This document shows positions 2,453 to 28,083 of a stretch of 40,280 bases of DNA, one piece after another. The notes under the pieces are model-generated. The model was not told the origin of the DNA. It saw only the letters and a program-made list of their open reading frames with translations, and ran no database searches. The first letter of the stretch is position 1. Each line of letters starts with the position of its first letter. The stretch lies in assembly GCA_964497285.1 (NCBI GenBank), contig CAZCDK010000001.1:9472-49751 (forward strand). The letters are read 5' to 3'. The DNA comes from an uncultured Anaerolineaceae bacterium. Lineage in GTDB: Bacteria; Chloroflexota; Dehalococcoidia; Tepidiformales; Tepidiformaceae. Both the position numbers and the translations under genes were made by a program.

Positions 2453-2820
2453 AGCCTGAAGGCACGCACCAGCGCCGTCAACATCTGGACTGACCGCTCT
2501 GGCCCCCGATCGTTGGGGCTCAGAGCGAGACTGACTCGAAGGATCAGCAGCATGGCCGGACGGTTCGTTGGGACTCGGCGGAAACGCAGGCTGATTGCGC
2601 GCGCGGAATCGAGAGGCCCTATACTGGGCATCGAGAGCTTCAGGAGCTTTGTTGGGGGCACGCCATGAGCTGGCCAACCACCGCCGCGAGGCTGGGGGCC
2701 GCCGCTGGTACCGCCCGCGCGAGCCGGCGCACGGGTTCGGTGCTGGTTGAGGAGCCCGTGGCGACTTGGGTCTTCCTGCCCGGGGACAACGCCCGGGGGC
2801 ACCGTCCGGAGGGACCGGCT

Positions 2821-5025: not shown

Positions 5026-5039
5026 CGCCGCCGACAGAC

Positions 5040-5055
5040 TATGACAGTCATCATA
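5040..5055. promoter_or_regulatory. Perfect palindrome TATGA-CAGTCA-TCATA (candidate Crp/Fnr-type operator)
   Basis: Read directly from the sequence. It lies between the MFS stop (5025) and alpha1. A hexamer GATGCT (nAnnnT) follows after exactly 21 nt (5077-5082). Confidence 0.65.
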
Positions 5056-5190
5056 CGCCGGAGGCGAGCTATCTTCGATGCTCGCTGACGGTCGTGCCCG
5101 GCCGCGTTGCCCGCTGTCCGGGACGTTTCGGCATTGCCGGCGGCCAGGGCGCCCGTGTGGAACACGCGGACGCGCTTGAAGGAGATTGTG

Positions 5191-7974: not shown

Positions 7975-7999
7975 AAGGCGGCCGGCAAGAACCCTCGAT

Positions 8000-8032
8000 C
8001 GGCGGGGCGAAAGTGCCCCGCCGCGCTGCTTT
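8000..8032 (+). terminator. GC-rich hairpin after alpha1 (candidate intrinsic terminator)
   Basis: CGGCGGGGC (8000-8008), loop GAAAGT, GCCCCGCCG (8015-8023), followed by CGCTGCTTT. The U-tract is short. Confidence 0.5.
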
Positions 8033-8072
8033 GAAGGGGTCCTCCGACTCCAGATCGGGGGCCCGCCGTCGA

Positions 8073-8088
8073 TATGACGGGAGTCATA
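8073..8088. promoter_or_regulatory. Perfect palindrome TATGA-CGGGAG-TCATA (candidate Crp/Fnr-type operator)
   Basis: Read directly from the sequence. Its centre lies 42.5 nt upstream of the alpha2 ATG. The hexamer GAACAT follows after exactly 21 nt (8110-8115). Confidence 0.65.
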
Positions 8089-8122
8089 CCGATAGGCGCC
8101 CTCGAACCAGAACATTGGCCGC

Positions 8123-10924
8123 ATGACTAGCCAAACCCCCATCGAACCCATCTACACGGGCTGGCAGGATCTCTACCGCCAAAAGTGGGACTGGGACGCC
8201 GTCTACTGGGGAACGCATTGCGTTGACTGCTACCCCGGCAACTGCCCGATGCGCGTCTACGTGAAGGACGGCATCGTCTGGCGCGAGGAACAGTCCGGGT
8301 CCTTCGACACGATCCAGCAGGGCGTGCCCGACTTCAACCCCATGGGCTGCCAGAAGGGCGCCTCCTGGAGCCAATCGCTCTACGGCCCCGATCGCGTCAT
8401 GTTCCCGCTGAAGCGCGCCGGCGAGCGCGGCGAAGGCAAGTGGAACCGCATCAGTTGGGATCAGGCTCTGAGCGAGATCGCAGACAAGCTCATCGACGCC
8501 ATCGAGGAACAGGGGCCCCACTCCACCATCCACGAAGGTACGCCGGGGATGGCCACCGCCGCTCCGACCGGCCGGTTCTTCTCGACCATTGGCGGCCTGG
8601 GCACAGACCTCAACGGGTCGATAAACGACTTCTCGATCGGCCTCTACGAGACTTTCGGGAAGTTTAGTCCGGTCTCGTCCGCCGATGACTGGTTCCATTC
8701 GGAAGTCGTGCTCATCTGGCACATGAACCCGGTCTACACCCGGATCCCCTTCTATCACTTCATCGCTGAAGCGCGTTACAACGGGGCCGAGGTCATCAAC
8801 ATCTCGCCCGACGTGAACCCGTCCCATCTCCACGCAGACATGCAGGTGCCAATTCGGGGCGCGTCGGACCAGGCGTTCGGACTCGCGATGGTTCAGGTGA
8901 TGTTCGAAGAGAACATCGCGAACTGGAAGTTCCTGAAGGAGCAGACCGACTTCGGGTACCTCGTGCGCACCGACACCCGCCGCTACCTCCGCCAGACGGA
9001 CGTCGAGGGCCAGGGCCGGGACGACCAGATGTACCAGTGGATTCCCGGCACCGGACTGAAGCTCGCCGACCGCGGCAGCGTCTTCCTCGGGGATGTGGAC
9101 ATCGCGCTGGAAGGCGTCTTCGACGTGAAGCTGGCCGACGGCTCGACCGTCCAGGTCACGCCCGTCTACTCGGTGCTGAAGAAGAAGCTCGACAGCGAGT
9201 ACACGCCCGAGAAACAGCAGGAGATCACCGGGGTCCACCCGGATGTCGTCCGCACAGTCGCCCGCAAGGTGGCAGCCAAGCGGACGAACATCATGCTTGG
9301 CTACAACGCCTGCAAGTTCTATCACGGCGACCTGATCGAGCGCGTACAGTGCCTCGTTCTCGCCGCCAGCGGGAATTGGGGCAAGCACGGGACCGGCATC
9401 CGCTGCTGGGCCGCCGGCATGCACGACGGCCTTTTCATCTCCTCCAACAAGCCCGGACCCGGCGCGGCCAACACGGAGATCATCCTCGCGGGCCGCGACG
9501 CTGCCGTGGCAGCAATGAAGGCAACCGATCCGACAATGACCACCGAGATCGCGGTGCGCGAGCTCGGTATGCTCGCCTCACGCTTCGAGATGGGTCCGGC
9601 CAACAGCCCCACGGGGTCGTCCACCATCCCGGCGATGATGTGGTACTTCCAGGGCGGCTATGACAAGCGCTGGAACACCCCCGGCTGGGGCGACGAGTCG
9701 CTCCCACGAAAGTTCGACGACTACTTCAACGAGGCCATCGAAAAGGGCTGGTGGCTCGGCTTGGACAAGCCGCGGCCGGAAAACCCCCCACGCGTGCTCA
9801 TTGAGTGCGGCGGAAACATGCTGCGGCGCACTCGCGGAGGCAAGGCGGCACTCCTGCCCACGCTTTGGCCCAAGCTCAGCGCGATCGTGACCATCGACTT
9901 CCGCATGAGCCAGACGGCGCTCTACGCGGACTATTTCCTCCCCGCGGCCCAGCACTATGAGAAGGTCTCGTTCCACATCCCTACGCCTCACGTGATGAAC
10001 CTCACGTTCTCCGACAAGGCGGCGCAGCCGGCAGGCGAAGCCAGGAACGAGTGGGAGATCTACTCCTCGCTGCTGGAGAAGCTCGCGGAACGGGCCCAGG
10101 CGCGCGGGCTCTCGGAATACACCGACAAGCGCGGCTACACCCGAAAATACGGCGAGTTGGCGTCCTACTACTCCATGAACGGGTACCTCCTCGACGAGGA
10201 CAAGATGGCCGACGAAGCCGTTCGTGACTCGGCGTTGGCGGGAACGCTGCCCATGGGCACGAACCTCAAGACCATGCGCGAGAAGGGCCACGTACGCTTC
10301 ATCGACTGGGGCCTCACGCCGATGGCGCTTGCCCAGGCTTCCCCGATTTCCGCGACCGAAACGCATGTTCCGTTCCGCGACAACACCGAGTCTGGGCATC
10401 CCTTCCCCACGTACGCGCGGCGCGCGCAGTTCTACATCGACCACGAATGGTTCCTGGAGGCAGGCGAAGAACTCCCCGTTTGGAAGCCGAACCCCAAGAT
10501 GGGCGGCGACTATCCCCTGGGTCTCACCTCCGGACACAATCGCTGGTCCATCCACGCCATGAACCAGAGCAACAACGTCATCCTCGGCACCCACCGCGGC
10601 GAACCCGACGTCTCGATCAATCCCGACGACGCGGCCGAGCGAGGCGTGAAGGACGGGGATCTCATCCGCGTCTTCAACGACGTGAGTTCCTTCAAGGTTC
10701 GGGCCAGGGTGGCCCCAAACGTGAAGCCGGGCCAGGTCATCTCCTACAACGGCTGGGCCGGCTTCCAGTACACGGACTGGTCGGGCGCGAACGAGATCGA
10801 GCCCGGAATGGTCAAGTGGATCGGGCTGGCCGGGGGCTATGGCCACCTGCGCCACTTGGGCACGGAGTGGCAGCCGGTTCCCAGCGATCGCTGGGTCCGC
10901 TGCGACTTCGAGAAGGTCAACTAG
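8123..10924 (+). CDS. Molybdopterin oxidoreductase catalytic subunit, type II DMSO-reductase family, paralogue alpha2
   Basis: 933-aa ORF. YRQKWDWD..THCVDCYPGNC..NPMGCQKG FS0 motif and INDF candidate Asp ligand. Collinear with alpha1 over its whole length. No Tat motif, and no Shine-Dalgarno sequence visible upstream. Confidence 0.9.
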   Translation: MTSQTPIEPIYTGWQDLYRQKWDWDAVYWGTHCVDCYPGNCPMRVYVKDGIVWREEQSGSFDTIQQGVPDFNPMGCQKGASWSQSLYGPDRVMFPLKRAGERGEGKWNRISWDQALSEIADKLIDAIEEQGPHSTIHEGTPGMATAAPTGRFFSTIGGLGTDLNGSINDFSIGLYETFGKFSPVSSADDWFHSEVVLIWHMNPVYTRIPFYHFIAEARYNGAEVINISPDVNPSHLHADMQVPIRGASDQAFGLAMVQVMFEENIANWKFLKEQTDFGYLVRTDTRRYLRQTDVEGQGRDDQMYQWIPGTGLKLADRGSVFLGDVDIALEGVFDVKLADGSTVQVTPVYSVLKKKLDSEYTPEKQQEITGVHPDVVRTVARKVAAKRTNIMLGYNACKFYHGDLIERVQCLVLAASGNWGKHGTGIRCWAAGMHDGLFISSNKPGPGAANTEIILAGRDAAVAAMKATDPTMTTEIAVRELGMLASRFEMGPANSPTGSSTIPAMMWYFQGGYDKRWNTPGWGDESLPRKFDDYFNEAIEKGWWLGLDKPRPENPPRVLIECGGNMLRRTRGGKAALLPTLWPKLSAIVTIDFRMSQTALYADYFLPAAQHYEKVSFHIPTPHVMNLTFSDKAAQPAGEARNEWEIYSSLLEKLAERAQARGLSEYTDKRGYTRKYGELASYYSMNGYLLDEDKMADEAVRDSALAGTLPMGTNLKTMREKGHVRFIDWGLTPMALAQASPISATETHVPFRDNTESGHPFPTYARRAQFYIDHEWFLEAGEELPVWKPNPKMGGDYPLGLTSGHNRWSIHAMNQSNNVILGTHRGEPDVSINPDDAAERGVKDGDLIRVFNDVSSFKVRARVAPNVKPGQVISYNGWAGFQYTDWSGANEIEPGMVKWIGLAGGYGHLRHLGTEWQPVPSDRWVRCDFEKVN

Positions 10925-10940
10925 GAGGAAGAGGGACACG

Positions 10941-11513
10941 ATGAAAGTCGCAAAGGTGAACGCAGGATCCGACCTCGCCGACCCGGCCGCGCAGGCCTGG
11001 AGCAGCGTGGCCGCGGAAGCGGTATCACTCGCTCCCGTGGCGCTTGCTGCTCAGCCGACGGAGTACATCCGCGAGGCCTGGGCCAGCCGCCCCTACGGCC
11101 AGACAGCCGAGGCGAAGGTGGCCGTCGCCTCCGACGGCAGCAAGCTCTATGTGCGCGTGGAGTGGGCCGACGACGCCAGGCCGAACACCGAATTCCAGGA
11201 CGCGGTCGGCGCCGTCCTCGGCGACGGCACCCTCGCCACCCTCGGAGACGCGAAGGCTCCACTCACGTTGTGGTATTGGGAAAACGGCCGCGGTGCCCTC
11301 AACCTCGTCGCCAAGGGACCGGGCGTGTTTGGCAAGGCCGACGCCGGAGCCGTCAGCGGGGCTGGTGCAATCAGCGACGGGAAGTGGGCCGCTGTCCTGA
11401 GCGGACCGGCCTCGGCCGCCAACGGCAAACTCGGAATCGCCGTGTGGAACGGCTCGAACGAAGAACGGGCGGGCCTCGCCGCCGTCAGCCGCGCCTGGCT
11501 GCCGCTCGAGTAG
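10941..11513 (+). CDS. EB_dh/DOMON-like gamma subunit homologue with no possible haem ligands (gamma1)
   Basis: ATG 10941 follows AGGAGGAAGAGGG. The 190-aa product aligns by eye with gamma2 (QPTEYIREAW / QPSAYVQKAW; LWYW / AWHW; GIAVWNGSNEERAGL / GIAVWSGAASERAGL). No signal peptide. Apart from the initiator Met it has no Met, His or Cys. Confidence 0.8.
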   Translation: MKVAKVNAGSDLADPAAQAWSSVAAEAVSLAPVALAAQPTEYIREAWASRPYGQTAEAKVAVASDGSKLYVRVEWADDARPNTEFQDAVGAVLGDGTLATLGDAKAPLTLWYWENGRGALNLVAKGPGVFGKADAGAVSGAGAISDGKWAAVLSGPASAANGKLGIAVWNGSNEERAGLAAVSRAWLPLE

Positions 11514-11531
11514 GCTCAAGGAGTTACAACG

Positions 11532-12566
11532 ATGACTGCAAACGGAACGCGCCAGATCGCCTGGGTCTTCGACCTCAACAAGTGCATCGGCTGCCAGACA
11601 TGTTCGGTGGCGTGCAAAGTCCTCTGGACCCGCGACGAGGGTGAGAAGCACGAGTGGTGGTGCTCAGTGAACACCCAGCCCGGCCTGGGCACTCCCAAGA
11701 ACTGGGAACAGATGGGCGGCGGTGTCGATCCGAAGTCGGGCAAGCCCGCGGCGGGCCACCAGCCCACCCGCGGTGAGTTCGGCGGCGGCTTCGACTTCAA
11801 CTACTACGAGGTCTTCTACGGCGGCACCGCCGGCAAGGCTCACCTTGAACCGCAGGCCCCACGCGAAGACCGCTGGGCCATGAACTGGGACGAGGACCAG
11901 GGCGCCGGCGAGTGGCCCAACTCGTACTTCTTCTACCTGCCTCGCCTGTGCAACCACTGCACCAATCCCACCTGCATGGAGGCTTGCCCCACGGGCGCCC
12001 TCAGCAAGCGGGACGACGGCCTCGTCTTGCGCGATGAGGACGTCTGCATGGGCGATCGCTTCTGCATGGAAGCCTGCCCCTACAAGAAAATCTACTTCAA
12101 CTACGAGCGCCACGTTTCCCAGCACTGCATCGGCTGCTTCCCTCGCATCGAAGCGGGCGTGGCCCCGGCTTGCGTGCGCCAGTGCCCGGGTCGCGCCGTC
12201 TTCGTCGGCTACATCGACGAGGAGGGCACCCCCGTCCACGACCTCGTGAAGAAGTGGAAGATCGCCCTTCCGCTGCATGCAGAGGCCGGCACCGGACCGA
12301 ACGTCTTTTACGTTCCCCCGCTCTCGCCCTACCGGTTGAACGACGACTTCAGTATCGACTACCAGACGCCGCGCATCCCGCGCGAGTACCTGGAATCGCT
12401 CTTCGGCCCGGAGGTCAATGGGGCCCTTTCCACGCTCAGCGGCGAGATGCAGAAGGTCCGCGAGGGCGGATCATCGGACATGCTCAAGACACTCATCGCC
12501 TACAAGTGGAAGGAATTGCTCGGACCCTTCACCGTCGATCCCGCCGACATCGTCCAAACGGTCTAG
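11532..12566 (+). CDS. Iron-sulfur beta subunit (NarH/EbdB-like, four-cluster ferredoxin), beta1
   Basis: Four cluster motifs: CIGCQTCSVAC, CNHCTNPTCMEACP, CMGDRFCMEACP (spacing of a 3Fe-4S group) and CIGCFPRIEAGVAPACVRQCP. The WW..N..PG insertion is typical of type II beta subunits. RBS AAGGAG. Confidence 0.9.
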   Translation: MTANGTRQIAWVFDLNKCIGCQTCSVACKVLWTRDEGEKHEWWCSVNTQPGLGTPKNWEQMGGGVDPKSGKPAAGHQPTRGEFGGGFDFNYYEVFYGGTAGKAHLEPQAPREDRWAMNWDEDQGAGEWPNSYFFYLPRLCNHCTNPTCMEACPTGALSKRDDGLVLRDEDVCMGDRFCMEACPYKKIYFNYERHVSQHCIGCFPRIEAGVAPACVRQCPGRAVFVGYIDEEGTPVHDLVKKWKIALPLHAEAGTGPNVFYVPPLSPYRLNDDFSIDYQTPRIPREYLESLFGPEVNGALSTLSGEMQKVREGGSSDMLKTLIAYKWKELLGPFTVDPADIVQTV

Positions 12567-12581
12567 CCAGGAGGCGCCGCC

Positions 12582-13268
12582 ATGTTCGTCTACTCACTCG
12601 CCGGTCTCCAGATCGACGGCGAAGCCAGCCAGGAGATGGAGCTTCCGGACAACGAAACCACGGCTCGCCTGGGTGTCTACCAGGTTCTGGCCCGTCTGAT
12701 GGCGTGTCCCGACGCCGACTCCCATGGGGCGGCCTTGGGCGGCGAGTGGCCCGGGCGGTTGGCCCACGATGCCAAGCTGCTTCCGTTTTCCTTCGATTTC
12801 GAGACCGCCTCGATCGATGCGGCAGTCTCCGAATCCAATTTCCAGGCCGAATACCTGCGGCTGTTCGAAGTTGGATCCGGCGAAGGCGGGCCCGGAGCGC
12901 CGCTGTTCGGCGGAGTGTATGGCAGCGGCGACCGGATGAAGAAGCTCGAAGAGGTGGTTCGCTTCTACGAGTACTTCGGACTGAAGGCATCGGCCGAGGA
13001 TCCGCGGCCGGCGGACCACCTCGCCACTGAGATGGAATTCATGAAGTTCTTGACGCTCAAGGAGGCGACCTCCGCGTCGCCCCGGCTGCAGGCCTCGTTC
13101 CGGCGGGCGCAGCATGACTTCTTGGAGCGCCAGCTGACTACGTGGCTACCCGAGCTTTCGAACCGGACCAGGGCGCAGAACCCAATGCCGTTCTGGCAGT
13201 GGGCCGTGGACCGGGCGAACGCCTTTGCCGGGGCCGACTTGGCCTACGTTCAGAGCGTGATGGGGTAG
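12582..13268 (+). CDS. TorD/NarJ-family maturation chaperone (delta1)
   Basis: 228 aa. YQVLARL...EYLRLFEVG....P..GGVY...RFYEYFGL....PADHLATEMEFMKFL matches the nitrate-reductase delta/TorD family pattern. RBS AGGAGG. Confidence 0.85.
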   Translation: MFVYSLAGLQIDGEASQEMELPDNETTARLGVYQVLARLMACPDADSHGAALGGEWPGRLAHDAKLLPFSFDFETASIDAAVSESNFQAEYLRLFEVGSGEGGPGAPLFGGVYGSGDRMKKLEEVVRFYEYFGLKASAEDPRPADHLATEMEFMKFLTLKEATSASPRLQASFRRAQHDFLERQLTTWLPELSNRTRAQNPMPFWQWAVDRANAFAGADLAYVQSVMG

Positions 13269-13316
13269 GACACACCAGCCCAATCCGTTCTCGGCTAGCA
13301 GACAGAAGCGAGACCT

Positions 13317-16061
13317 ATGACTATTCCTGCTGACGGGCAGTACCGGCAGCGCTGGAGTTGGGATCGTGTGACCTTCGGGACGCACTGTCTCAACTGCCTC
13401 GCCACCTGCCCCTACCGTGTCTACTCCCGCAACGGGAAAGTGCTGTTCGAAGAACCGGTCGGGACTTTCCCCCAAATCGACGAGGGCGTACCGGACTTCA
13501 ATCCCATGTCCTGCCAGAAGGGTAGCGCTTGGAGTGTCCAGCTCGACACGCCCGACCGTCTGAAGTACCCCCTGCGTCGCAAAGGAGAGCGCGGCTCAGG
13601 GGAGTGGGAGCGGATCTCCTGGGACGAAGCACTCACGGAGATCGCCGATGCCCTGATCGAGGCGATCGACTTGGAGGGCCCTGAGTCCATCGTCTTCGAG
13701 GAGACGGTCGAAGGCGGACTGCTCACGCAGGCCCCCTATCTCCGCTTTGCCGGCATGCTCGGCGCGGTCACCCTCGATGCGAATGGCCTCATCAACGACT
13801 TCCCCGCAGGGCACCACATCACCTGGGGCAAATTCTCCTGCGCGAGCTCCATGGACGACACGTTCCATTCCGAGCTCCTCCTCATCTGGCACTCGAACCC
13901 CGCCTACACGTGGATTCCTTACGCGCACTTCATCACCGAGGCTCGGTACCACGGATCGAAGGTCGTGTGCATCGCGCCCGACTTCAGCCCCTCCGCGCCC
14001 ATGGCAGACGCCTATGTCCCGATCAAGGTCGCGTCGGACGCCGCGTTCGCGCTCGCAATGTGCCAGGTGATCATCTCCGAGGGCCTGTTCGACCGGGACT
14101 TCGTCCTCTCCCAAACAGATCTGCCACTGCTGGTGAACCCGGCTACGCGCCGCTTCCTTCGTGGTTCGGAGGTCACAGCCGGCGAACGCGAGGACCAGTT
14201 CTACTGGTGGGACGCCGCCTCCGCGAAGATCGAGCAGGCCCCGCGCGGGACCCTGGAGATCGAGGATGTCAGCCCGGCCCTCGAAGGGCGCTGGCGCGTC
14301 ACGACGCTCGATGGCGAAGTCGAAGTCACGACGGTCTGGGAACTGCTCAAGGAACACCTGGGGCAATACACCCCCGAGGCGGTGAGCGGCATCTGCGGCG
14401 TCAGCCCACAGGTCATGCGCGACCTTGCCCGGGAAGTGGCCTCCAAGCGGACGAAGATCCTGGAAGGCTTCAACACACCCAAGTTCTACCACGGCGATCT
14501 GATGGAACGGGCGATGATCCTGCTCCTCGGCCTGACCGCGAACTGGGGGCGCAAGGGCACAGGCATCCAGGGGCTCGCACTCGCCGGCATGGACGGCTAC
14601 ATGCTCTTCGGCATGAAGCAGAAGCGCGGAGTGGCCGAGACCATTCGCGTTATGGAAGGCGTCGAGGGGGCGGTCGAGGCCCTGCGCTCACAGGACCCCG
14701 AGGCGTCGGACGAGATCCTCGGCTACGAACTCCTCCAGCGCGGCCTCGTGTCAGGCACCGCCAGCCCGCCAGCTTTCTTCCACTTCTATCACTGCGGCTA
14801 CAAAGACACGTGGAACACGCCCCAGTGGTCAGATCCATCGATGACGCGCTCGTTCGAGGACTACGTCGGCGACGCCGTGCGACGCGGGTGGTGGGGCGGC
14901 CTGGTGAAGCCCGGGCCGAGTTCCGATCCCCAGGTGCTCTTCATCGTGGCGACCAACCCGATCAGGCGCCAGCGCGGCGGCACGGACACACTCGCCAAGA
15001 CTCTCTGGCCCAAGCTGGAAAAGATCGTCGTTGTCGAAAACCGGATGAGTGCCACCGCATTGCAGGCGGACATCGTGCTTCCGGCGGCGATGCAATACGA
15101 GCGCATCAATCTCCAGTACGCCATCACGCACTCCTTCTCGGTCGGGTTTTCAGACAAGGCCGTGGAGCCCCAGGGCGAAGCGAAGACTGAGTGGGAGATC
15201 TTCAAGGCGCTCTCGAAGGTGATGCAGGAGCGCGCCATCGCCCAGGGCGTGGTCGAGTACCTCGACGGCCGGCGGCAACCCAAGCGGCTTGATGGCCTGT
15301 ACAACTCCTTCACCCTCAACGGTGCCTACGAGAACGAGGAAACCGTCGTCGAGGAGTGGCTTCGCGACAGCATCGAGGCGGGGACGTTGCCCGAAAACGG
15401 CACCCTCAGCCATCTTCGCGAGAATGGGACAGCGCGGTTCATCGATCTTGGCATGTTCGCGCCCGGTCTCTCGCTGGCGGCCGATGTCGAGTCGGACCAG
15501 ACGGACACAGCATTCCAGTGGTACGTCAACGACTTCGGGCCCTACCCGACGCTCACCCGCCGGTCACAGTCTCTGATCGACCACCCGTGGTTCGCCGAGG
15601 CAGGCGAGGACTTGCCCACGCACAAGGACAACCCGAAGCAGGGCGGCGACTACCCGCTCGTGATCACGAGCGGCCATTCCCGGTGGACAGTCCACGCCGT
15701 GTCGATGGGAAACCACGTGCTGCACGGCACGCACCGGGGCGAGCCACTCGGGATCTTGAACGCCTCGGACGCCGCCGCGCGCGGCATCGCGGACGGTGAC
15801 GTAATCGAGGTGTTCAACGACAGGGGCAACTACAATATTCGATGCCGCGTGGCTCCCCGGGTGCGTCCTGGCCAGGTGATCGTGTACAACGGCTGGGAGC
15901 CGCACATGTTCAAGGACTGGAAGGGCGCCAATGAAGTGGAGCCCGGCATGGTCAAGTGGCTGCATCTTGTGAGCCGCTACGGGCATTTGCGTTACCTGCC
16001 GTTCGGCTGGCAGCCAGTCCCTGCCGATCGGTCCGTCTTTGTGGATGTGAGGAAAGCATGA
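13317..16061 (+). CDS. Molybdopterin oxidoreductase catalytic subunit, type II DMSO-reductase family, paralogue alpha3
   Basis: 914-aa ORF. YRQRWSWD..THCLNCLATC..NPMSCQKG FS0 motif and INDF candidate Asp ligand. No Tat motif. Its TGA stop overlaps the next gene's ATG (ATGA). Confidence 0.9.
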   Translation: MTIPADGQYRQRWSWDRVTFGTHCLNCLATCPYRVYSRNGKVLFEEPVGTFPQIDEGVPDFNPMSCQKGSAWSVQLDTPDRLKYPLRRKGERGSGEWERISWDEALTEIADALIEAIDLEGPESIVFEETVEGGLLTQAPYLRFAGMLGAVTLDANGLINDFPAGHHITWGKFSCASSMDDTFHSELLLIWHSNPAYTWIPYAHFITEARYHGSKVVCIAPDFSPSAPMADAYVPIKVASDAAFALAMCQVIISEGLFDRDFVLSQTDLPLLVNPATRRFLRGSEVTAGEREDQFYWWDAASAKIEQAPRGTLEIEDVSPALEGRWRVTTLDGEVEVTTVWELLKEHLGQYTPEAVSGICGVSPQVMRDLAREVASKRTKILEGFNTPKFYHGDLMERAMILLLGLTANWGRKGTGIQGLALAGMDGYMLFGMKQKRGVAETIRVMEGVEGAVEALRSQDPEASDEILGYELLQRGLVSGTASPPAFFHFYHCGYKDTWNTPQWSDPSMTRSFEDYVGDAVRRGWWGGLVKPGPSSDPQVLFIVATNPIRRQRGGTDTLAKTLWPKLEKIVVVENRMSATALQADIVLPAAMQYERINLQYAITHSFSVGFSDKAVEPQGEAKTEWEIFKALSKVMQERAIAQGVVEYLDGRRQPKRLDGLYNSFTLNGAYENEETVVEEWLRDSIEAGTLPENGTLSHLRENGTARFIDLGMFAPGLSLAADVESDQTDTAFQWYVNDFGPYPTLTRRSQSLIDHPWFAEAGEDLPTHKDNPKQGGDYPLVITSGHSRWTVHAVSMGNHVLHGTHRGEPLGILNASDAAARGIADGDVIEVFNDRGNYNIRCRVAPRVRPGQVIVYNGWEPHMFKDWKGANEVEPGMVKWLHLVSRYGHLRYLPFGWQPVPADRSVFVDVRKA

Positions 16062-17515
16062 GTGCACCAACCCCTATTGCCCTGACCCCGGGAGAACACG
16101 CTGCCATCGCGCGGCTGTTCGAAGGTGGAAGGCCGTACTTCTCGCTGCTATCGACGCTCCGGACCAGGCGCATTGGCATGGGCTACCGCAGCGAAACGGG
16201 CGTGGAAGAGACGTTCGATTGGTCGAGCCGCCTGGCGGTACGCCAGCGCGAAGGCCCGTTGGCATACACGTCACCGGCACCGCCGGCGCCGCTTTCGGAA
16301 GTGGAAGAGGCACTCATTGCCTGGGCGGCCCTTGGTCCCAACGGTGTGATCGCCGCCGATGTGGCCGTGAACGGCGACCTTTCGAGCCTCCTCTACTGGG
16401 CCGGGCGTACAGCGCCGGGCTCCAGCAACGACATGGCGGTCAACCTCTTCATCATCAACGACCAGGGCGTGCACCTGTACCGTCCCGGGCCCGAGCGGAT
16501 GGCCCCTGTAGAGATCAGGGGCCCGGATGACTACTGGAAAATCCTCTACTGGTACCGCAACTGCCGAACAAGGATCATGGACCGCCGCCCCGACATCGGC
16601 TACATGACCGCCCCACCCGGCACCCACAACGTGAACTCGATGGGACCTCTCCAGTACAACGCGAACCGGCCCGGAAGCACATGGTTCCTCCCGGTCGGGG
16701 ACGTCGGATTGGAGTGGGTGAACCAGCTCTTGTCGTCGTACCAGTTCTCCGGCTTCTACCTCCAGGACCCGGACACCGACAAGCCGGCTGGTTGCGATCA
16801 GTGGATCCGGCCGGGCTTCCTTGAAGTCGGCTTCCCCCTCCCCACTTTCGACGAGCTCGCGATCATGCAACACGTCTCCGAAGCCGCCTGCGTCGTCCAG
16901 AACATGCGGGTCGCCTGCGAGGCCATGGGCCTCGGCGCCTGGGCAATCGGCGGCTACTCCGACGACATGTTGCTGGGGGCGTACCCCGAAATCGCCCAGG
17001 GCCTCGGCTTTGCCCACCTTGAACGCGACCCGGCCAGGAATCCCTCCCGGACGGCGACCTGCCAGGGTCTCCCCGGTCTCCTGGATGCGACCATGACCCC
17101 CTCTCGCAAGTTCCCGAACGCCGAAGCGCTGGTCACATACGTTGCTCAGCTTCGATACCAGCGCGGAGCGCAGCTCGCCCGGGAGGACAACTGGGCGCTC
17201 GCGGCGGGGGGACCGTTCAACGACCAAACCCTGCAGAAGATCATGGAGCACCCCCGAACACATATCCCCGATTGGGTCATCCAGGCGGCGATTGACACGG
17301 TGAAGTACATCGTCGAGAAGTACGGCTGCGCCCCGGCATACATCAACCCGATGCGAGCCAAGTTCTCGACGCAAGTGCATCACGTCGACCTGGACTACTA
17401 CCGGCAATTCCACGCCGGAGACGGCGAACCGTTCCTTGTGACAACCCAACTCAAAAGCCATTTCACGGACTGGCACCCTGGTGTGGCAGACCCGTATGAG
17501 AGGAGTGCCCGGTAG
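16058..17515 (+). CDS. Large nitroreductase-superfamily-like protein of unknown function
   Basis: ORF 15956..17515. ATG 16058 overlaps the alpha3 stop codon. N-terminal LRTRRIGMGYR resembles the RRSxR FMN motif. LSEVEEALIAWAALG and VQNMRVACEAMGLGAWAIGGY resemble the nitroreductase-fold core helices. At 485 aa it is about twice the size of a classical nitroreductase. The fold call is tentative. Confidence 0.65.
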   Translation: MSAPTPIALTPGEHAAIARLFEGGRPYFSLLSTLRTRRIGMGYRSETGVEETFDWSSRLAVRQREGPLAYTSPAPPAPLSEVEEALIAWAALGPNGVIAADVAVNGDLSSLLYWAGRTAPGSSNDMAVNLFIINDQGVHLYRPGPERMAPVEIRGPDDYWKILYWYRNCRTRIMDRRPDIGYMTAPPGTHNVNSMGPLQYNANRPGSTWFLPVGDVGLEWVNQLLSSYQFSGFYLQDPDTDKPAGCDQWIRPGFLEVGFPLPTFDELAIMQHVSEAACVVQNMRVACEAMGLGAWAIGGYSDDMLLGAYPEIAQGLGFAHLERDPARNPSRTATCQGLPGLLDATMTPSRKFPNAEALVTYVAQLRYQRGAQLAREDNWALAAGGPFNDQTLQKIMEHPRTHIPDWVIQAAIDTVKYIVEKYGCAPAYINPMRAKFSTQVHHVDLDYYRQFHAGDGEPFLVTTQLKSHFTDWHPGVADPYERSAR

Positions 17516-18075
17516 TGTGGTCGAATCCGGATCTGCTATCAACGGTCCTGCAGGTGGTCTATGGCATCCTGCATGACCTCTCCATTGCCGTGTACATCGG
17601 CGGCGCTGTGGCAATGGAGTACGTGCTTGGGCCCGCCCAGAACTCCATCCCGCCAGCGCAGGCGCAGGTGATGGGCCAAAAGACCGCCGACCGGTTCATC
17701 TGGTTGGTCTGGGGGTCACTTGGTGTCATCATTGTCACGGCGATTCTGCGGCTCGAACGGCTGGGCCACATCGCTTTCGGCGGGTCCATACTCCAGTCGT
17801 CAATGGGTCTAGGCCACGACTACGGCCGCACGGTTTGGGCGATGCTCGCCCTCTGGTGCGTTCTCGTGGCGAACGGCGCCATCATGACCTTCAACCTGAG
17901 GCCCAGGCTCTCCGGCAAGTTGAAGCCGGGCACGACCTCGGCCGGCGTCCAGGCCGCCCAACAAGCGAAGATGGATGCCGCCAAGTGGGTCGAGCGGATC
18001 ACCAAAGCCGATATTGTCATCGCCATCGTCATCGCGCTCTTTGGCGCATCTCTCAGGTTCAATGGGATCCTGTAG
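17515..18075 (+). CDS. 4-TM membrane protein, paralogue 1 (unknown family)
   Basis: GTG 17515 overlaps the upstream TAG by 1 nt, with AGGAG 9 nt upstream. Four hydrophobic helices. Shared motif with the next gene: H-x5-AVY[IV]GG-x3-ME[YW]VL-x3-Q-x3-PP-x-Q. Confidence 0.75.
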   Translation: MWSNPDLLSTVLQVVYGILHDLSIAVYIGGAVAMEYVLGPAQNSIPPAQAQVMGQKTADRFIWLVWGSLGVIIVTAILRLERLGHIAFGGSILQSSMGLGHDYGRTVWAMLALWCVLVANGAIMTFNLRPRLSGKLKPGTTSAGVQAAQQAKMDAAKWVERITKADIVIAIVIALFGASLRFNGIL

Positions 18076-18108
18076 ACGAGACTCTCGGGGCGGATGCCAG
18101 GAGACTGA

Positions 18109-18636
18109 ATGGACACGCTGCTTGCGTGGGCCCACGCGCTCGCGTGGGCTGTCTACGTCGGCGGATCAATAACCATGGAGTGGGTGCTGCGCTACGCCCA
18201 GAGGACGATGCCACCGTCGCAGGTGTCGATCGTCTGCAAGCGTTCGGGCAGCCGCTACCGCTGGCTCGGGCTCGGAACCCTGGGCGTGATCGGTCTCACC
18301 GGCGCCCTCATGGTGGCCACCCTCGACAGGGACGGGCTCCTCCTCCGGCCGGGCCATCCGGAGCTGGCGCTTTCCGATGCCTACGGGCAGACGGTCGCAG
18401 CGCTTTCGGTCCTCTGGGTGGCACTCGTCACGGCTTCGGCATCGATGGCGTTCTGGCTTCACCCGGCGCAAGCCCGCCGCTCCAGCCCCGAGATGTCCCA
18501 GGACGAGATCCAGGCGGAGCGCCAGCGCGTTGGCCGTGCCATTGCGCGCATGGATCGCGTGCTGAAGTTCGAGCTCCTCACCTCCGTGGTCTCAATTGCC
18601 CTCGGCGCCTCACTTGGTGCCGGCGGGTTGCTTTGA
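18109..18636 (+). CDS. 4-TM membrane protein, paralogue 2 (unknown family)
   Basis: ATG 18109 follows AGGAGA. 175 aa with the same four-helix layout and motifs as 17515..18075 (WAHALAWAVYVGGSITMEWVL..MPPSQ; YGQTV..LW; GASL near the C-terminus). Confidence 0.75.
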   Translation: MDTLLAWAHALAWAVYVGGSITMEWVLRYAQRTMPPSQVSIVCKRSGSRYRWLGLGTLGVIGLTGALMVATLDRDGLLLRPGHPELALSDAYGQTVAALSVLWVALVTASASMAFWLHPAQARRSSPEMSQDEIQAERQRVGRAIARMDRVLKFELLTSVVSIALGASLGAGGLL

Positions 18637-18652
18637 AGGTGGTATAGGTCCC

Positions 18653-19819
18653 ATGCCGAAGACGATCGCGATCACCCCCTCCTGGTACTGGCCAGCCGAC
18701 ATCCCGCGGGTGGCCGGCGTGCCCCCTTTCTCGATCTACGAGCTCTGCGTCTCTCGCGGCGTTCGCGACCGCGCTGGAGAGCCGGCTCTCATCGCCGGGA
18801 AGTCACGCCTCTCCACCAACGAGCTGAAGGACGAAGTCGATCGGCTGGCGTCGGGCCTGGCGGCACGTGCCGGGCAAGGCCGGAGGGCGGTGCTTGCGGG
18901 CGACCCTACCCTCGACACCGTACTCCTGCTGCTGGGCGCCCTCGCGGCCGGCTTGCATGTGCGCATCGCACCGCCGGGATCGAACCTTGCCGCGGTCGCC
19001 CAGCAGTTCGGCACGAGCCTCGTCCTGGAAGGCGCCGGCGCAGTCGAACCGGCGGCAGACGTCCCGCCCCACGTCCCCACCTCTGACGAACTCACCGCAC
19101 CGGCGGTCACGATAGATGGTCGCGACGGACCGGTGAGCCACTCACACCGGTCGTTGCTTGCCGCTGCGCTGAGCATGACCACCTTCTTCGATGCCGACCC
19201 ACGCCGCCCCTGGATGGCGTCGCTGCCCCTGAGTCGTTGGGAGGGATTGGCATCAGTGATCATCCCGCTCTTCCTCGGCGCGCCGCTCGTCCTGTCTCCG
19301 CAGGGTTCCGACGCGGACGCAATCGTGGAGACGATGGTGCGCGAGGGCGTCGGCTACGCGTTCACGGAACTGGACGGAGCAGCAACCCTCACCCGCGACG
19401 CGAAGAAGGCCGTGAAGGACGCGAGGCGCATCCTCAACGCCTTTCTCCTCTCGACTGCGGGTATGTTCGACCCGGACTCGCGCCGCCGCGTCAGCAGAGC
19501 CTTCGAATGCCCGGCCCTGACGGTCTTCGGTCTCCCGGAAACCGGCCCGATCTTCGCCGCGCATCAATCCTGGTACATCGACGAGTCGATCGGTATTCCG
19601 CTAAGCAACGCCCACGTCGTGCCCGCCGACCCGCGTTCTGGCCAGCCAATCCAGGCCCTGTGGGAGCTCGTGGAGTCGGCCGAGGTGACCGTTTGGACGC
19701 CATCGCTGATGGTGGGATACGAGGGAGCCGAACACCCGGAGCGCTTCATCGACGGTCGCTACCGGACCGGCATGATCGCCTCCTCCGACGCCAACGGCAT
19801 GATCTACCTGCTCGGATAG
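18653..19819 (+). CDS. Adenylate-forming (ANL) superfamily homologue, N-terminal domain only, with degenerate motifs
   Basis: ORF 18596..19819; ATG 18653. Collinear with acyl-CoA synthetase N-domains. The P-loop reads TIDGRDGPVSHSHRSL instead of TSGTTGxPKGVxxSHRNL. A5-like motif FGLPETG. The A7 motif reads YRTGM instead of YRTGD. The protein ends at DANGMIYLLG, exactly at the hinge before the C-terminal domain. Confidence 0.75.
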   Translation: MPKTIAITPSWYWPADIPRVAGVPPFSIYELCVSRGVRDRAGEPALIAGKSRLSTNELKDEVDRLASGLAARAGQGRRAVLAGDPTLDTVLLLLGALAAGLHVRIAPPGSNLAAVAQQFGTSLVLEGAGAVEPAADVPPHVPTSDELTAPAVTIDGRDGPVSHSHRSLLAAALSMTTFFDADPRRPWMASLPLSRWEGLASVIIPLFLGAPLVLSPQGSDADAIVETMVREGVGYAFTELDGAATLTRDAKKAVKDARRILNAFLLSTAGMFDPDSRRRVSRAFECPALTVFGLPETGPIFAAHQSWYIDESIGIPLSNAHVVPADPRSGQPIQALWELVESAEVTVWTPSLMVGYEGAEHPERFIDGRYRTGMIASSDANGMIYLLG

Positions 19820-19977
19820 CCGGCGGCAGCCTGACCCGCGCCCGGCAGTGCCCGGCCCATGGAGCATCCAGGGCGAGTCACGGGGTAGGCCCTTGGGGGG
19901 CGAGGTCCGCCCGCCCGCGAACTCACTCATAACCTGCCCCAATCGTCCTACTCACTACGCCTATAGATGTCCAGTCT

Positions 19978-20004
19978 TGCCAGATGGGAACGGACCTGCC
20001 AGAT
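19978..20004 (+). repeat. Direct repeat TGCCAGAT x2, 19 bp apart
   Basis: Copies at 19978-19985 and 19997-20004, in low-GC DNA upstream of the small wHTH gene. Possibly an operator or promoter element. Confidence 0.3.
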
Positions 20005-20088
20005 TCTCACCATGGCCCGCGGAGGCCCGGCGTGGGGTCGGGCCGTTGCGCCGCCGCGGCCAGTCCCGTCAGGGTAAGGAGCCACAAG

Positions 20089-20343
20089 ATGTCCGATGCC
20101 GAACCTGAAGAGAACACCGGCAAGGAATCGAGCCAGTCCCGGCATGTTCACGCGTTTCTGAAGACGGCCATCCTTTTCGGCGGCCTCGCGGCTGGCACCG
20201 CCATCAGTGTTGCCGCGCTGGTCAGACGCCACCGGGTGTCCGCCAACGCCGCGCGAGACGCCCTGGTTAGACTCGAGGACGAAGGCCTCGTTGATCGAGA
20301 AGCGCCGGACACAGTCGTCGTGTCCGACCGCCTCGACCACTGA
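20089..20343 (+). CDS. Small stand-alone winged-HTH protein (GntR-like DNA-binding domain only)
   Basis: ATG 20089 follows TAAGGAG. The 84-aa product has ISVAALVRRHRVSANAARDALVRLEDEGLV, which resembles the GntR N-terminal wHTH. No effector domain. Confidence 0.55.
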   Translation: MSDAEPEENTGKESSQSRHVHAFLKTAILFGGLAAGTAISVAALVRRHRVSANAARDALVRLEDEGLVDREAPDTVVVSDRLDH

Positions 20344-20371
20344 GCCTGAGCCCGCAAGCCGCGTTGCGCGG

Positions 20372-21034
20372 TCAGGCAGCCTCTGTGAGGAAAGCCGTCT
20401 CCCGGACGCAGTACTCGTTCAGCAGGCGGAGAACCGCCCGGTAGAACGCGGGCGGATTCTTGCCCTCGACACGCCGCACCGCCTCTGCCGACCAGCGAAG
20501 GAGGTGTCGCGCCAGGACATCGCCCTCGGCGGTCCGGACAGGCGCGGGGTCCTCCCCGTGGCTGAGGTTCGCCTCGCGGAAGGCGAGGAAATGAAGGAAC
20601 TCCAGCACAGTCGGAATGGCGTCCGGGAGGTCACGCGCTTCGCCCGACACGGTAAGACCGAAGTGCCGGTAGAAGCGCAGGAGTTCCTCCATTGAGTCGC
20701 GGCGCGAGGAGGCAAAGACCCCCGCATAGAGCGGCATCGCGGGTCCCCCACCGGGCAGGTCAAAGAGCCGGATGTAGTCGCTCTGGACCTCCAGGTACTC
20801 CATCTCGGGTTCGACGAGCCCCGCGAAGAGCTCCGCCGGCAGGCAGTATGGCAGTACCGCAGCGATGCTCTCTGCCGCGCTCCGGATCTGTCCGCCGCGG
20901 CAGGCTTCAACCAGCTGGTCGGTTGGAAACGAGAGCAATTCGCTGAGGAGCCCGTAGAACTCGCTCCGGGCCCGCGCGGTTTCGTTCACACGTTTCAGCC
21001 TACCGTACCGGCTGCCGCTGGAGCGTGGTCGCAT
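20372..21034 (-). CDS. TorD/NarJ-family maturation chaperone (delta2)
   Basis: SEFYGLLSELL...DYIRLFDLPGGGPAMPLYAGVF...RFYRHFGL...LPDAIPTVLEFLHFL matches delta1 and the TorD/NarJ pattern. The start is uncertain: ATG 21034 overlaps beta2 by 35 nt; GTG 20989 is an alternative. Confidence 0.85.
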   Translation of the reverse strand: MRPRSSGSRYGRLKRVNETARARSEFYGLLSELLSFPTDQLVEACRGGQIRSAAESIAAVLPYCLPAELFAGLVEPEMEYLEVQSDYIRLFDLPGGGPAMPLYAGVFASSRRDSMEELLRFYRHFGLTVSGEARDLPDAIPTVLEFLHFLAFREANLSHGEDPAPVRTAEGDVLARHLLRWSAEAVRRVEGKNPPAFYRAVLRLLNEYCVRETAFLTEAA

Positions 21035-22077: not shown

Positions 22078-22698
22078 TCAGCCGACCTTGAGGTCGTGCC
22101 AGGTTGGTGTGTGCGACTTCAGTCCTGCCCGTTCGCTGGCGGCGCCGCTCCAGACAGCGATTCCGATCTTGGCCGGGTTGCCCGGGCCCGCCAAGACGAC
22201 GTGCCACGAACCGTTTTGCCATTCGCCGGTCGCCTGGAGCGCGTGCTTCTTCTCACGAGTGACCGTGCCCAGCCCTTGCGCCGTGGCGACGTTCGGGCCG
22301 GCAGCGCCCGCTCGCCAATGCCAGGCGGTGACCGGCTTGCCGGCGCTGCCCATGGTGCCGATCTCGGCGTCGTTCCCGTTCGCAGGAAACAGAACCGCAC
22401 ACGCGTCGGCATACACGTCGTTGTCGTTGATCGTGTGACGCGGGTCTGGGGCCGCCCATTGGAGGCGAACCACGAGCTCGTCCCCGGCGGCGAGGGCCTT
22501 CACCGCCACCGACTCGATGCCGCCGCGCTGCCGCCCGGCCCACGCCTTCTGCACATAGGCCGAGGGCTGCGCCTCCAGGGGCGTCGGCTGCAGTGGCAAC
22601 GATACCTCGATTGCGTCATCCCATGCAGGGGCGCGAGGCGACAGGAGATCCCGGACCACACCTGACGCCTTCTTTGCCGTCACGTTCTGTGTAGTCAT
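22078..22698 (-). CDS. EB_dh/DOMON-like haem-b-type gamma subunit (gamma2), no signal peptide
   Basis: 206 aa. Its ATG overlaps the alpha4 stop codon (ATGA). It retains a Met (GTMGS) and a Lys (AGLKS) at positions expected for the Met/Lys haem ligands of EbdC-type gamma subunits. The N-terminus is hydrophilic. Confidence 0.85.
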   Translation of the reverse strand: MTTQNVTAKKASGVVRDLLSPRAPAWDDAIEVSLPLQPTPLEAQPSAYVQKAWAGRQRGGIESVAVKALAAGDELVVRLQWAAPDPRHTINDNDVYADACAVLFPANGNDAEIGTMGSAGKPVTAWHWRAGAAGPNVATAQGLGTVTREKKHALQATGEWQNGSWHVVLAGPGNPAKIGIAVWSGAASERAGLKSHTPTWHDLKVG

Positions 22699-27294: not shown

Positions 27295-28083
27295 ATGGAA
27301 TTGCGCGAAGCCATCGGCCGCCGGAGGTCCATGCGGTTCCTGTTGCCCCACAGGCCAGTGGAGCCTGAAAAGATCCAGCGCATGCTCGAAGCCGCACGGA
27401 TCGCGTCGCATTGGGGAAACGTGCAATCCCTGCGAGCAGTCGTCGTCTTCCGCGACACCGCTCCGAAAGACGTGGTCGATGCGATCGTGGCCCCGATCGC
27501 CGGGTACCAGATCAAGCTGGCCCCCGTCGTCATCGTCTGGTACGTCGACACAAATGCCGTGGACGAACAGAACGACCGGCTTCGTGAGCTGCTGAAGGCT
27601 GGCGCCATGGGCGTGGGCGAAGGCAAGGAAGAGGCGCTCGAGAAGCAGATCATCCCCATCTTCACGAACATCCTTCCCGCCATGAAGCAGCCGGGCCTGA
27701 ACGAGGTAGATTGTGGCCAGGGGATCGCCCAGGCGACCCTCATGGCGTTCGAGCAGGGCCTCGGCACCTGCCTGCTGGGATCGGGCAACGGGGAGAAGAT
27801 TCGCCAGAACCTCGGCCTGCCCGATGGGTGCCGGGTCCTCGTATTGCAGACAGTCGGGTACCCGGCCGAGAGCGAAGAGGCGGGCGGGCAACGCCCCCGC
27901 CAGCCCTTCGAGAAGCTGTTCCACATGAATGGCTACGGGAACCCGTTCCCGCGGTCCGCTCAGGTTGTGGACGAACTCAAGCGCGATAAGATGTTGCAGA
28001 ACCCCGCCCCGCTGCCGCATCGAGAAGCTGAACTCGAATACCTGAAGAACGCGCTCGGCATCAAGGGCCACGGCCTGCTGTAG
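27295..28083 (+). CDS. Nitroreductase-family flavoprotein
   Basis: N-terminal AIGRRRSMRFL FMN motif and ..CGQGIAQATLMAFEQGLGTCLLG core. RBS GAAGGAG. Confidence 0.85.
   Translation: MELREAIGRRRSMRFLLPHRPVEPEKIQRMLEAARIASHWGNVQSLRAVVVFRDTAPKDVVDAIVAPIAGYQIKLAPVVIVWYVDTNAVDEQNDRLRELLKAGAMGVGEGKEEALEKQIIPIFTNILPAMKQPGLNEVDCGQGIAQATLMAFEQGLGTCLLGSGNGEKIRQNLGLPDGCRVLVLQTVGYPAESEEAGGQRPRQPFEKLFHMNGYGNPFPRSAQVVDELKRDKMLQNPAPLPHREAELEYLKNALGIKGHGLL

Follow-up and report, generated by a model that had tools for sequence, protein, structure and literature searches.

A conserved four-gene module tied to an ethylbenzene dehydrogenase-type molybdoenzyme of uncultured bacteria: very probable partner proteins and a possible substitute electron outlet

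The 40,280-nucleotide stretch of DNA considered here (hereafter the window; contig CAZCDK010000001.1 of assembly GCA_964497285.1, from an uncultured Anaerolineaceae bacterium that GTDB places in the Tepidiformaceae) contains a plus-strand array of nine genes, in which the genes for a molybdenum enzyme of the ethylbenzene dehydrogenase (EBDH) type are followed by four accessory genes, here named A, B, C and D. The array begins with alpha2 (8123..10924), a paralog of the EBDH-type catalytic subunit carrying molybdenum bis(pyranopterin guanine dinucleotide) (Mo-bisPGD), with the Pfam domains Molybdopterin and Molydop_binding and without a twin-arginine translocation (Tat) signal. It continues with gamma1 (10941..11513), an EbdC-like subunit (TIGR03477 at 2.8e-22) that has lost both axial haem b ligands; beta1 (11532..12566), the four-cluster iron-sulfur (Fe-S) subunit (TIGR03478 at 4.2e-132; Fer4_11); and delta1 (12582..13268), an assembly chaperone of the NarJ/TorD type (TIGR03482 at 1.7e-34; PF02613). 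These are followed by alpha3 (13317..16061), an EBDH-type catalytic subunit (2ivf_A at E 4.7e-215) to which the accessory module is locked. Gene A (16058..17515) encodes a 485-residue protein with a nitroreductase fold, recognized from its AlphaFold2 model by Foldseek, and is presumed to specify a flavin mononucleotide (FMN) protein; B (17515..18075) encodes a CopD-like four-helix membrane protein (PF05425 at 7.9e-9); C (18109..18636) is a paralog of B (34% identity, E 4e-27) and its presumed heterodimer partner; and D (18653..19819) comprises only the N-terminal domain of the ANL superfamily (PF00501 at 1.8e-23), lacking the P-loop. From alpha2 to D, the intergenic gaps measure, in order, 16, 18, 15, 48, -4, -1, 33 and 16 nt. 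At 16058, the stop codon of alpha3 and the start codon of A share bases within the sequence ATGA, and at 17513, within TAGTG, the TAG stop of A overlaps the GTG start of B. The coordinates, overlaps and gaps given in an earlier interpretation of the same DNA (the sequence-only reading) all proved exact against the list of open reading frames (ORFs) and the raw sequence.

The module is neither peculiar to this contig nor loosely associated with its molybdoenzyme. A scan of 185,579 species-representative genomes yielded 78 loci, all from metagenome-assembled genomes (MAGs), hosted by Dehalococcoidia/Tepidiformaceae and other Chloroflexota, Acidimicrobiia/Microthrixaceae and other Actinomycetota, Gamma- and Alphaproteobacteria, and one bin labelled Acidobacteria; several of them come, by their record titles, from oxygen-minimum-zone or sediment MAGs. 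Mapping by tblastn places the genes in the order alpha3-A-B-C-D in essentially all of the 78 loci whose contig reaches far enough, with 46 loci complete at a coverage of at least 60% and about 60 holding alpha3 together with A; the three apparent exceptions to this order are frameshifted assemblies. The gene neighbourhoods of three long contigs give the same succession, i.e., Mo-alpha, A, CopD, CopD and AMP-binding. Where the contig extends upstream, the gene directly preceding A is always an alpha3 ortholog and never alpha1, 2 or 4, and in 49 of 60 loci a start codon of A overlaps the stop codon of alpha3, the shared stretch being 4 nt long in 37 loci, 1 nt in 7 and 8 nt in 5, an arrangement that points to translational coupling and a 1:1 complex of the predicted proteins. 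Homolog searches returned close orthologs of A, B and D in no context other than that of the alpha3 module. The linkage of the module to alpha3 is, thus, far beyond chance, and the synteny with the molybdoenzyme genes in related genomes, on which the sequence-only reading had staked itself, is strongly kept. We consider it very probable that A–D are obligate partners of the alpha3 enzyme.

The remainder of the operon is more variable. In most loci, the alpha2-gamma-beta-delta block is found directly upstream of alpha3-A-B-C-D; several Acidimicrobiia have it downstream of D instead. A minimal operon, beta-C-delta-alpha3-A-B-D, is found at 4900-13100 of locus L038 (Gammaproteobacteria bacterium SI047_bin61, Saanich Inlet); it is devoid of alpha2 and gamma, and C is relocated between beta and delta. 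Since this operon dispenses with both genes and gamma is missing, though beta is present, from five proteobacterial loci in all (L002, L020, L021, L038 and L061), alpha2 and gamma are optional, and the conserved core therefore consists of alpha3, beta, delta, A, B, C and D. The sequence-only reading had described the module as fused to the alpha3 end of the operon; that linkage is real, but the description understated it, given that the core unites alpha3-beta-delta with A-B-C-D. Across the loci, median identity is 69% for beta, 64% for alpha3, 63% for A, 49% for D, 48% for B, 46% for gamma, 43% for delta and 41% for C. Conserved like the catalytic subunits, A looks like a cofactor-bearing subunit, while C and D look structural by the same measure.

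The EBDH-type enzymes characterized so far are all located in the periplasm and rely on an outlet formed by haem b and cytochrome c. The catalytic subunit alpha3 keeps the equivalent of the Mo ligand Asp223 (LIND) as well as the FS0 motif H-x3-C-x3-C (H-C-L-N-C-L-A-T-C) and is a bona fide EBDH-type catalytic subunit. It is 48% identical to alpha2, relative to which no insertion or deletion of at least 4 residues was found that could mark a docking site for A. The beta1 subunit scores 440 bits against TIGR03478, just under the cut-off of 480.7. A Tat signal, i.e., a twin arginine followed by a hydrophobic region, is present neither in the four EBDH-type alphas of the window (5107-7974, 8123-10924, 13317-16061 and, on the minus strand, 22695-25592) nor in 134 alpha N-termini of related loci, including those of diderm proteobacteria; only 8-30 residues precede the conserved YRxxWxWD motif. 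Because the alphas lack Tat signals, the whole clade is predicted to be cytoplasmic, and a periplasmic cytochrome c cannot be the acceptor. The gamma subunit conforms to this picture of departure from the known enzymes: compared with 2ivf_C, gamma1 has Leu101 in place of Met108 and Ala180 in place of Lys201, whereby both haem ligands of EbdC are lost. Among 44 orthologs, the haem-Lys site is occupied by Lys in none, with G, A or H instead, and the haem-Met site by Ile or Leu in 33. Both ligands, Met and Lys, are kept in gamma2 of the minus-strand operon, which has no A–D genes of its own. In EBDH, electrons leave via the Met/Lys-ligated haem b of gamma to a periplasmic cytochrome c (PMC8840923). 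With neither Tat signals nor gamma haem ligands, the enzyme linked to A–D would, by its sequences, be cytoplasmic and have lost this canonical outlet. Genes for cytochromes, NarI or NrfD were found neither among the window ORFs scanned nor among the called genes of loci L001-L004.

Protein A resisted assignment by sequence. Searches of Pfam, NCBIfam and the Protein Data Bank (PDB) returned only sub-threshold nitroreductase/SagB matches (PF00881 at 15.2 bits, under the cut-off of 23.5; TIGR03605 at 14.6 bits, under the cut-off of 78.4), and the fold emerged from an AlphaFold2 model built with 74 homologs (predicted local distance difference test score, pLDDT, 88.6; predicted template modelling score, pTM, 0.91). 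Foldseek matched this model to the nitroreductases 3hj9, 3hoi and 8cqs with a probability of 1.0 and E values of 6e-5 to 3e-4, followed by ThcOx, McbC, BmdC and AlbA as next relatives; A is, as modelled, a very divergent member of the nitroreductase superfamily. An hhalign comparison with Escherichia coli NfsB aligned 29 columns covering the central helix-strand motif only, which was too little to assign individual FMN ligands. The orthologue alignment reveals invariant R35-T-R37-R38, R433-A-K435, H442, H468 and H473, a near-invariant H441, and a central conserved motif QN-R-A-E-GLG-W. The basic motifs R35-x-R37-R38 and R433-x-K435 appear to sit where nitroreductases bind the FMN phosphate, and FMN binding is predicted on this basis. 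Across phyla, A is 54-94% identical (median 63%), and the homolog search returned only sequences from uncultured organisms.

Distant paralogs of A without B, C, D or alpha3 partners number only two (38-40% identity) in the genome scan, with remoter ones elsewhere; those inspected (L076, L080, L083-L086 and Haladaptatus) stand alone or in unrelated contexts and gave no functional lead. One of them, P0216 (L084, 2623-5214), fuses an MpaB/Lcp (rubber-oxygenase-type) domain to an A-like domain. On the Rhizobium phaseoli plasmid pRetR611c (L087, 813-7329), an A-like gene forms an operon with genes for an animal-haem-peroxidase, a RoxA-like cytochrome c and a 195-residue membrane protein; the latter was considered as a relative of B and rejected as unrelated. 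The joining of remote A-like proteins to other oxidoreductases fits a redox-partner role of A.

Proteins B and C belong to the CopD/DUF4149/DUF2269 clan. While B exceeds the PF05425 (CopD) threshold (36.3 versus 32.1 bits), C, its clear paralog, remains below it at 24 bits. The AlphaFold2 model of B consists of four long helices of 32-41 residues each. In the orthologue alignments, H20, M34, E35, N120, R129 and P130 are invariant in B, which also has a conserved PPAQAQ loop, and C43 and H118 are invariant in C. In B, the strongly conserved segments PPAQAQVMGQKTADRF and RPRL are found on the side rich in lysine and arginine, which is taken to be cytoplasmic; in the model, the conserved loops on this side extend as helices outside the bilayer. 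The histidine of the first transmembrane helix (TM1) is invariant in B (H20), while its counterpart in C (H9) is kept in 38 of 62 orthologs and replaced by Phe or another residue in 24, with Phe in about a quarter of the C orthologs. A bis-His haem held between B-H20 and C-H9 was, hence, set aside as a universal feature, and no conserved haem-ligand pair was seen in B/C, the TM1 His being unpaired in many C proteins. By sequence, B has no match in the PDB at E values up to 10, and a Foldseek comparison with anchors of the NarI/FdnI type gave nothing significant; the best membrane match, FdnI at E 0.87, was dismissed together with cytochrome b matches as generic four-helix-bundle noise. HemJ binds haem b via a TM1 His. 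B shares the four-helix unit and a conserved TM1 His with HemJ-type proteins, but this His is not conserved in C, and a Pfam search with nine B orthologs (E up to 1) did not return PF03653 (HemJ). Likewise, two four-helix units such as B and C together mimic the eight-helix CopD/YcnJ copper importers, of which B passes the family threshold; here, however, a CopC domain or partner is missing, as is any neighbouring copper enzyme, neither CopC nor a copper protein being found among the window ORFs scanned or the called genes of L001-L004.

Protein D is readily recognized as an ANL-superfamily member, with 83.4 bits against PF00501 (AMP-binding; threshold 29.9), and its profile matches the N-domains of MenE, malonyl-CoA synthetase and the adenylation domains of nonribosomal peptide synthetases (NRPS) in the PDB. 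In all 65 locus orthologs, the A3 P-loop (T/S-S-G-T/S-T-G-x-P-K-G) is absent, the region before a conserved HSxRSLL being variable and gapped; equally absent from all of them is the A7 Asp of Y-x-T-G-D, with M, V, I, T or L following T-G. The C-terminal subdomain (PF13193) with the A10 Lys is missing, D ending at the A8 hinge (...NGMIYLLG and stop); the 65 orthologs are equally truncated, and family length is 370-413 residues among the top 120 members listed. Lacking P-loop, A7 Asp and C-domain, D cannot, as judged from its sequence, be an adenylating enzyme. At its N-terminus, the 14-residue stretch MPKTIAITPSWYWP is conserved to at least 95% across the 65 orthologs. Public records label orthologs P0391-P0510 as 'acyl-CoA synthetase/ligase' or 'AMP-binding protein' despite truncation and the missing P-loop, which very probably constitutes a functional misannotation.

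The sequence-only reading had, thus, been right to describe A as nitroreductase-fold-like, B and C as paralogous four-helix membrane proteins, D as a crippled ANL protein and gamma1 as haem-free, and to report no NarI, NrfD or cytochrome gene. Its statement that the four genes belong to no described type II molybdoenzyme operon agrees with full-text literature searches, which found no published description of the A–D module. Public annotations of the module proteins read 'hypothetical protein', 'CopD family protein' or 'AMP-binding protein / acyl-CoA ligase'.

In terms of alpha, beta and delta, the system belongs by sequence to dimethyl sulfoxide (DMSO) reductase subfamily II, and its alpha3, beta, gamma and delta are clear homologs of EBDH and of the steroid C25 and C26 dehydrogenases (EbdABCD-type). 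It departs from these in that the known enzymes are Tat-exported and periplasmic, whereas the window system has no Tat signal; that the known gamma carries a Met/Lys-ligated haem b, whereas the gamma found here is free of haem ligands or absent; and that the A–D genes are additional, occurring in no described operon of that family. In Sterolibacterium, several alpha paralogs reportedly share one beta subunit, as they do in the window system. With NarGHI and DmsABC, it would share the logic of a catalytic alpha, a four-cluster beta and a membrane partner leading to the quinone pool, but the CopD-clan proteins B and C resemble NarI, FdnI or NrfD neither in sequence nor, to any significant degree, in fold, and those systems have no counterpart of flavoprotein A or of the pseudo-ANL protein D. 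MsrPQ (YedYZ) with Fre is likewise a molybdoenzyme combined with a small membrane redox protein and a flavin or flavoprotein; it differs in its sulfite oxidase-type Mo center, its FRD-type haem b membrane protein with six transmembrane helices, its periplasmic orientation and the flow of electrons toward Mo. The pairing of D with A has an analogue in BmdB-BmdC and the Ox domains of NRPS, where an ANL core is physically paired with an FMN protein of nitroreductase fold; in 7ly5, one chain was retrieved by D and the other by A. This likeness is confined to the superfamily level, since D has lost the adenylation motifs and the C-terminal subdomain and there is no carrier, condensation domain or peptide substrate. 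An NRPS-like reading of A and D, or one involving peptides made on the ribosome and altered after translation (RiPPs), was rejected, there being no precursor, carrier or condensation gene and a strict coupling to alpha3.

Convergent to the nine-gene array, a second EBDH-type operon, alpha4-gamma2-beta2-delta2, occupies 25592-20372 on the minus strand and is conserved beside the module in the Chloroflexota loci. Between the convergent D and delta2 genes lies a 119-codon ORF (19984-20343, plus strand) with a GntR-type helix-turn-helix (E 5.7e-8) that is of uncertain status as a real gene. Upstream of the operon, a Crp/FNR-family regulator (2665-3573, plus strand) ends in the Cys-rich motif CGECQFDC, possibly an element for sensing redox state or metals. 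Elsewhere in the window there are genes for a short-chain dehydrogenase/reductase, acyl-CoA dehydrogenases, the Crp-family regulator, a major facilitator superfamily transporter, an SCP-x-type thiolase, CoA-transferase subunits, a small genuine nitroreductase and a methylmalonyl-CoA mutase, a gene content that is that of a catabolic island. The small nitroreductase (27295-28083, plus strand; 262 residues, PF00881 at 2e-16) is conventional, unrelated to protein A and neighboured by acyl-CoA dehydrogenase, thiolase and CoA-transferase genes. An Rfam scan of the window found no RNA family, and a promoter/terminator scan of 4900-20500 returned fewer sites than shuffled controls and was uninformative as to transcript structure. 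Among related loci, two adjacent flavoproteins of about 570 residues (amino-oxidase/NAD_binding_8 type) are encoded directly upstream of alpha3 in Acidimicrobiia SJ788 (L001, 3480-6915); they are CtmAB-like, with a resemblance to limonene dehydrogenase and to the delta-24 steroid desaturase of Sterolibacterium that hints at an isoprenoid or a sterol side chain as the substrate. An actinobacterial MAG encodes, a few kb downstream of D, a radical S-adenosylmethionine (SAM)/SPASM protein followed by another EBDH-type alpha that is 48% identical to alpha2 (L003, 16329-20386; L004, 11780-15837).

Taken as stable subunits, as is suggested by the overlapping alpha3/A frames, the rigid gene order and the conservation ranking, A–D would be additional, stoichiometric components of a cytoplasm-facing, membrane-attached molybdenum hydroxylase of the EBDH type. 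The clade would have given up export and the usual outlet as well, as there is neither a Tat signal nor a haem b in gamma. The alpha3-beta unit must shed two electrons per turnover, and nothing else encoded in the operons could take them. Considering the haem-free or absent gamma, the lack of any usual anchor or cytochrome and the lack of Tat signals, a substitute outlet is the most economical reading. In this arrangement, the B/C heterodimer would serve as membrane anchor and docking platform, an eight-helix unit of CopD fold with conserved cytoplasmic helical hairpins; A, with its FMN, would accept the two electrons of water-dependent C-H hydroxylation from the Fe-S chain of alpha3 and beta and hand them on to a quinone bound in the membrane at B/C, if not to a different acceptor of high potential, such as O2; and D would act as a catalytically dead scaffold of ANL fold, whose invariant N-terminal peptide may join the soluble and the membrane parts. 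The placement of C next to beta in the minimal operon of L038 fits this outlet. We infer complex formation, FMN binding, the route and direction of electron flow and the nature of the acceptor, and we put the probability that A–D replace the haem-gamma outlet, providing membrane attachment and electron exit for alpha3-beta, at roughly 40%. That they constitute a new respiratory coupling module, which links a cytoplasmic C-H hydroxylase to the membrane electron-transport chain, we regard as somewhat unlikely.

A number of points weigh against an outlet of this kind. The module is tied to alpha3, not to beta or gamma, which are the normal points of electron exit. Flavoproteins of nitroreductase fold typically carry out two-electron (hydride) chemistry on organic substrates and stabilize the semiquinone poorly, which makes them unusual relays for one-electron Fe-S clusters. 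The CopD fold is not known to have a redox or quinone function; B lacks a significant structural match to NarI/FdnI-type anchors; and the frequent replacement of the TM1 His in C makes a bis-His haem at that site unlikely as a universal feature. Menaquinone is the expected quinone of Chloroflexota and Actinomycetota; if it is indeed the host quinone and the acceptor, electrons from a hydroxylation couple near 0 to +30 mV would have to move uphill. It is not obvious what a pseudo-ANL subunit would contribute to electron transfer, and the roles within the outlet are read from sequence, predicted folds and synteny. The substitute electron route proposed in the sequence-only reading is borne out in part: the module, the haem-free gamma, the lack of a usual anchor or cytochrome and the missing Tat signals stand in its favour, while the retention of the TM1 His in only 38 of 62 C proteins and the welding of the module to alpha3 speak against it.

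The coupling to a single alpha, rather than to the shared beta or gamma, would be explained if the module acts on the substrate side, with A as a flavin dehydrogenase or desaturase that works on the hydrophobic, sterol- or isoprenoid-like substrate of alpha3 just before or after it, for example by creating or consuming the allylic position that alpha3 hydroxylates, and with B/C and D extracting and handing over a membrane lipid, D being a ligase-like lipid-binding shell. Four substrate oxidases, ThcOx, McbC, BmdC and AlbA, are among the structural relatives of A; the profile of D matches the adenylation core of the NRPS BmdB, which crystallizes with the nitroreductase-fold oxidase BmdC (7ly5); and remote A-like proteins are associated with enzymes of the rubber-oxygenase type, whose substrates are polyisoprenes. 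Furthermore, acyl-CoA dehydrogenases, a thiolase and a CoA-transferase are encoded in the window, CtmAB-like flavoproteins adjoin alpha3 in L001, and Sterolibacterium provides a precedent in the form of a flavin delta-24 desaturase working in tandem with a Mo-dependent C26 hydroxylase (PMC11061730). That desaturase, however, belongs to a flavoprotein family different from that of A (PMC11061730), and a substrate-side role would leave alpha3-beta without an electron outlet, gamma being haem-free or absent and both Tat signal and cytochrome lacking. Overlapping frames and a fixed order over four phyla are rare for catabolic neighbours, D is without any nucleotide-binding motif, and B and C, given their small size and simple build, do not resemble known lipid transporters; overall, we judge this explanation, the chief rival of the outlet, unlikely. 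A delivery of electrons to O2, with A as a flavin oxidase forming H2O2 or H2O and B/C as a mere tether, would avoid the thermodynamic problem of a low-potential menaquinone pool. The nearest complex-forming structural relatives of A (ThcOx, BmdC and AlbA) use O2, and many host lineages, such as Acidimicrobiia and Tepidiformaceae, are aerobes. Yet the membrane heterodimer would then be superfluous, several loci stem from oxygen-minimum-zone or sediment MAGs, and Mo-bisPGD/Fe-S hydroxylases of the EBDH family are known from anaerobic metabolism (PMC8840923), which renders an O2-linked outlet decidedly improbable.

The CopD likeness of B, which exceeds the Pfam threshold, allows for maturation or metal delivery, in which B/C would import a metal such as copper and A and D would install or modify a cofactor in alpha3. 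The invariant residues H20, M34 and E35 of B and C43 and H118 of C are typical soft-metal ligands, A has a cluster of histidines (H442, H468 and H473 invariant, H441 near-invariant), and the specificity of the module for one alpha is in line with such a function. No enzyme of the DMSO reductase family is known to need copper, however; a dedicated delta chaperone is already present, neither a CopC partner nor a metallochaperone is found among the window ORFs scanned, and comparison with alpha2 reveals no insertion or deletion in alpha3 by which an extra cofactor could be housed. The overlapping alpha3/A frames and the catalytic-level conservation of A are more suggestive of a subunit in stoichiometric amounts than of an assembly factor, so that a maturation role appears improbable. 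Taken at face value, the public labels 'CopD family protein' and 'AMP-binding protein / acyl-CoA ligase' would make the four genes unrelated passengers, e.g., for copper resistance and CoA ligation, which merely share a transcript with the molybdoenzyme. This is effectively refuted by synteny and hardly credible: the order of the five genes is fixed in about 60 loci of several phyla, the searches met close orthologs of A, B and D only in the alpha3 context, and D, devoid of P-loop, A7 Asp and C-domain, is unable to adenylate.

EBDH-type enzymes catalyze the water-dependent hydroxylation of unactivated C-H bonds and are studied with regard to anaerobic hydrocarbon and sterol degradation as well as biocatalysis, for instance of 25-hydroxyvitamin D3. 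Among uncultured Chloroflexota, Acidimicrobiia and marine proteobacteria, the present clade is widespread, and it always comes with the same four extra proteins. Knowledge of the roles of A–D would show how EBDH-type enzymes are wired in cells without a periplasm, what sets the physiological electron acceptor, which is a practical bottleneck for whole-cell biocatalysis, and what functions are open to truncated ANL pseudo-enzymes and to CopD-like membrane proteins, both of them poorly understood. In addition, the public labels 'acyl-CoA ligase', 'CopD family protein' and 'hypothetical protein' would be corrected. If A–D do form a respiratory coupling module, the CopD fold would gain a role in redox or quinone coupling that has never been described for it, and oxygen-independent lipid hydroxylation in monoderm and uncultured aerobic or facultative bacteria would find an explanation.

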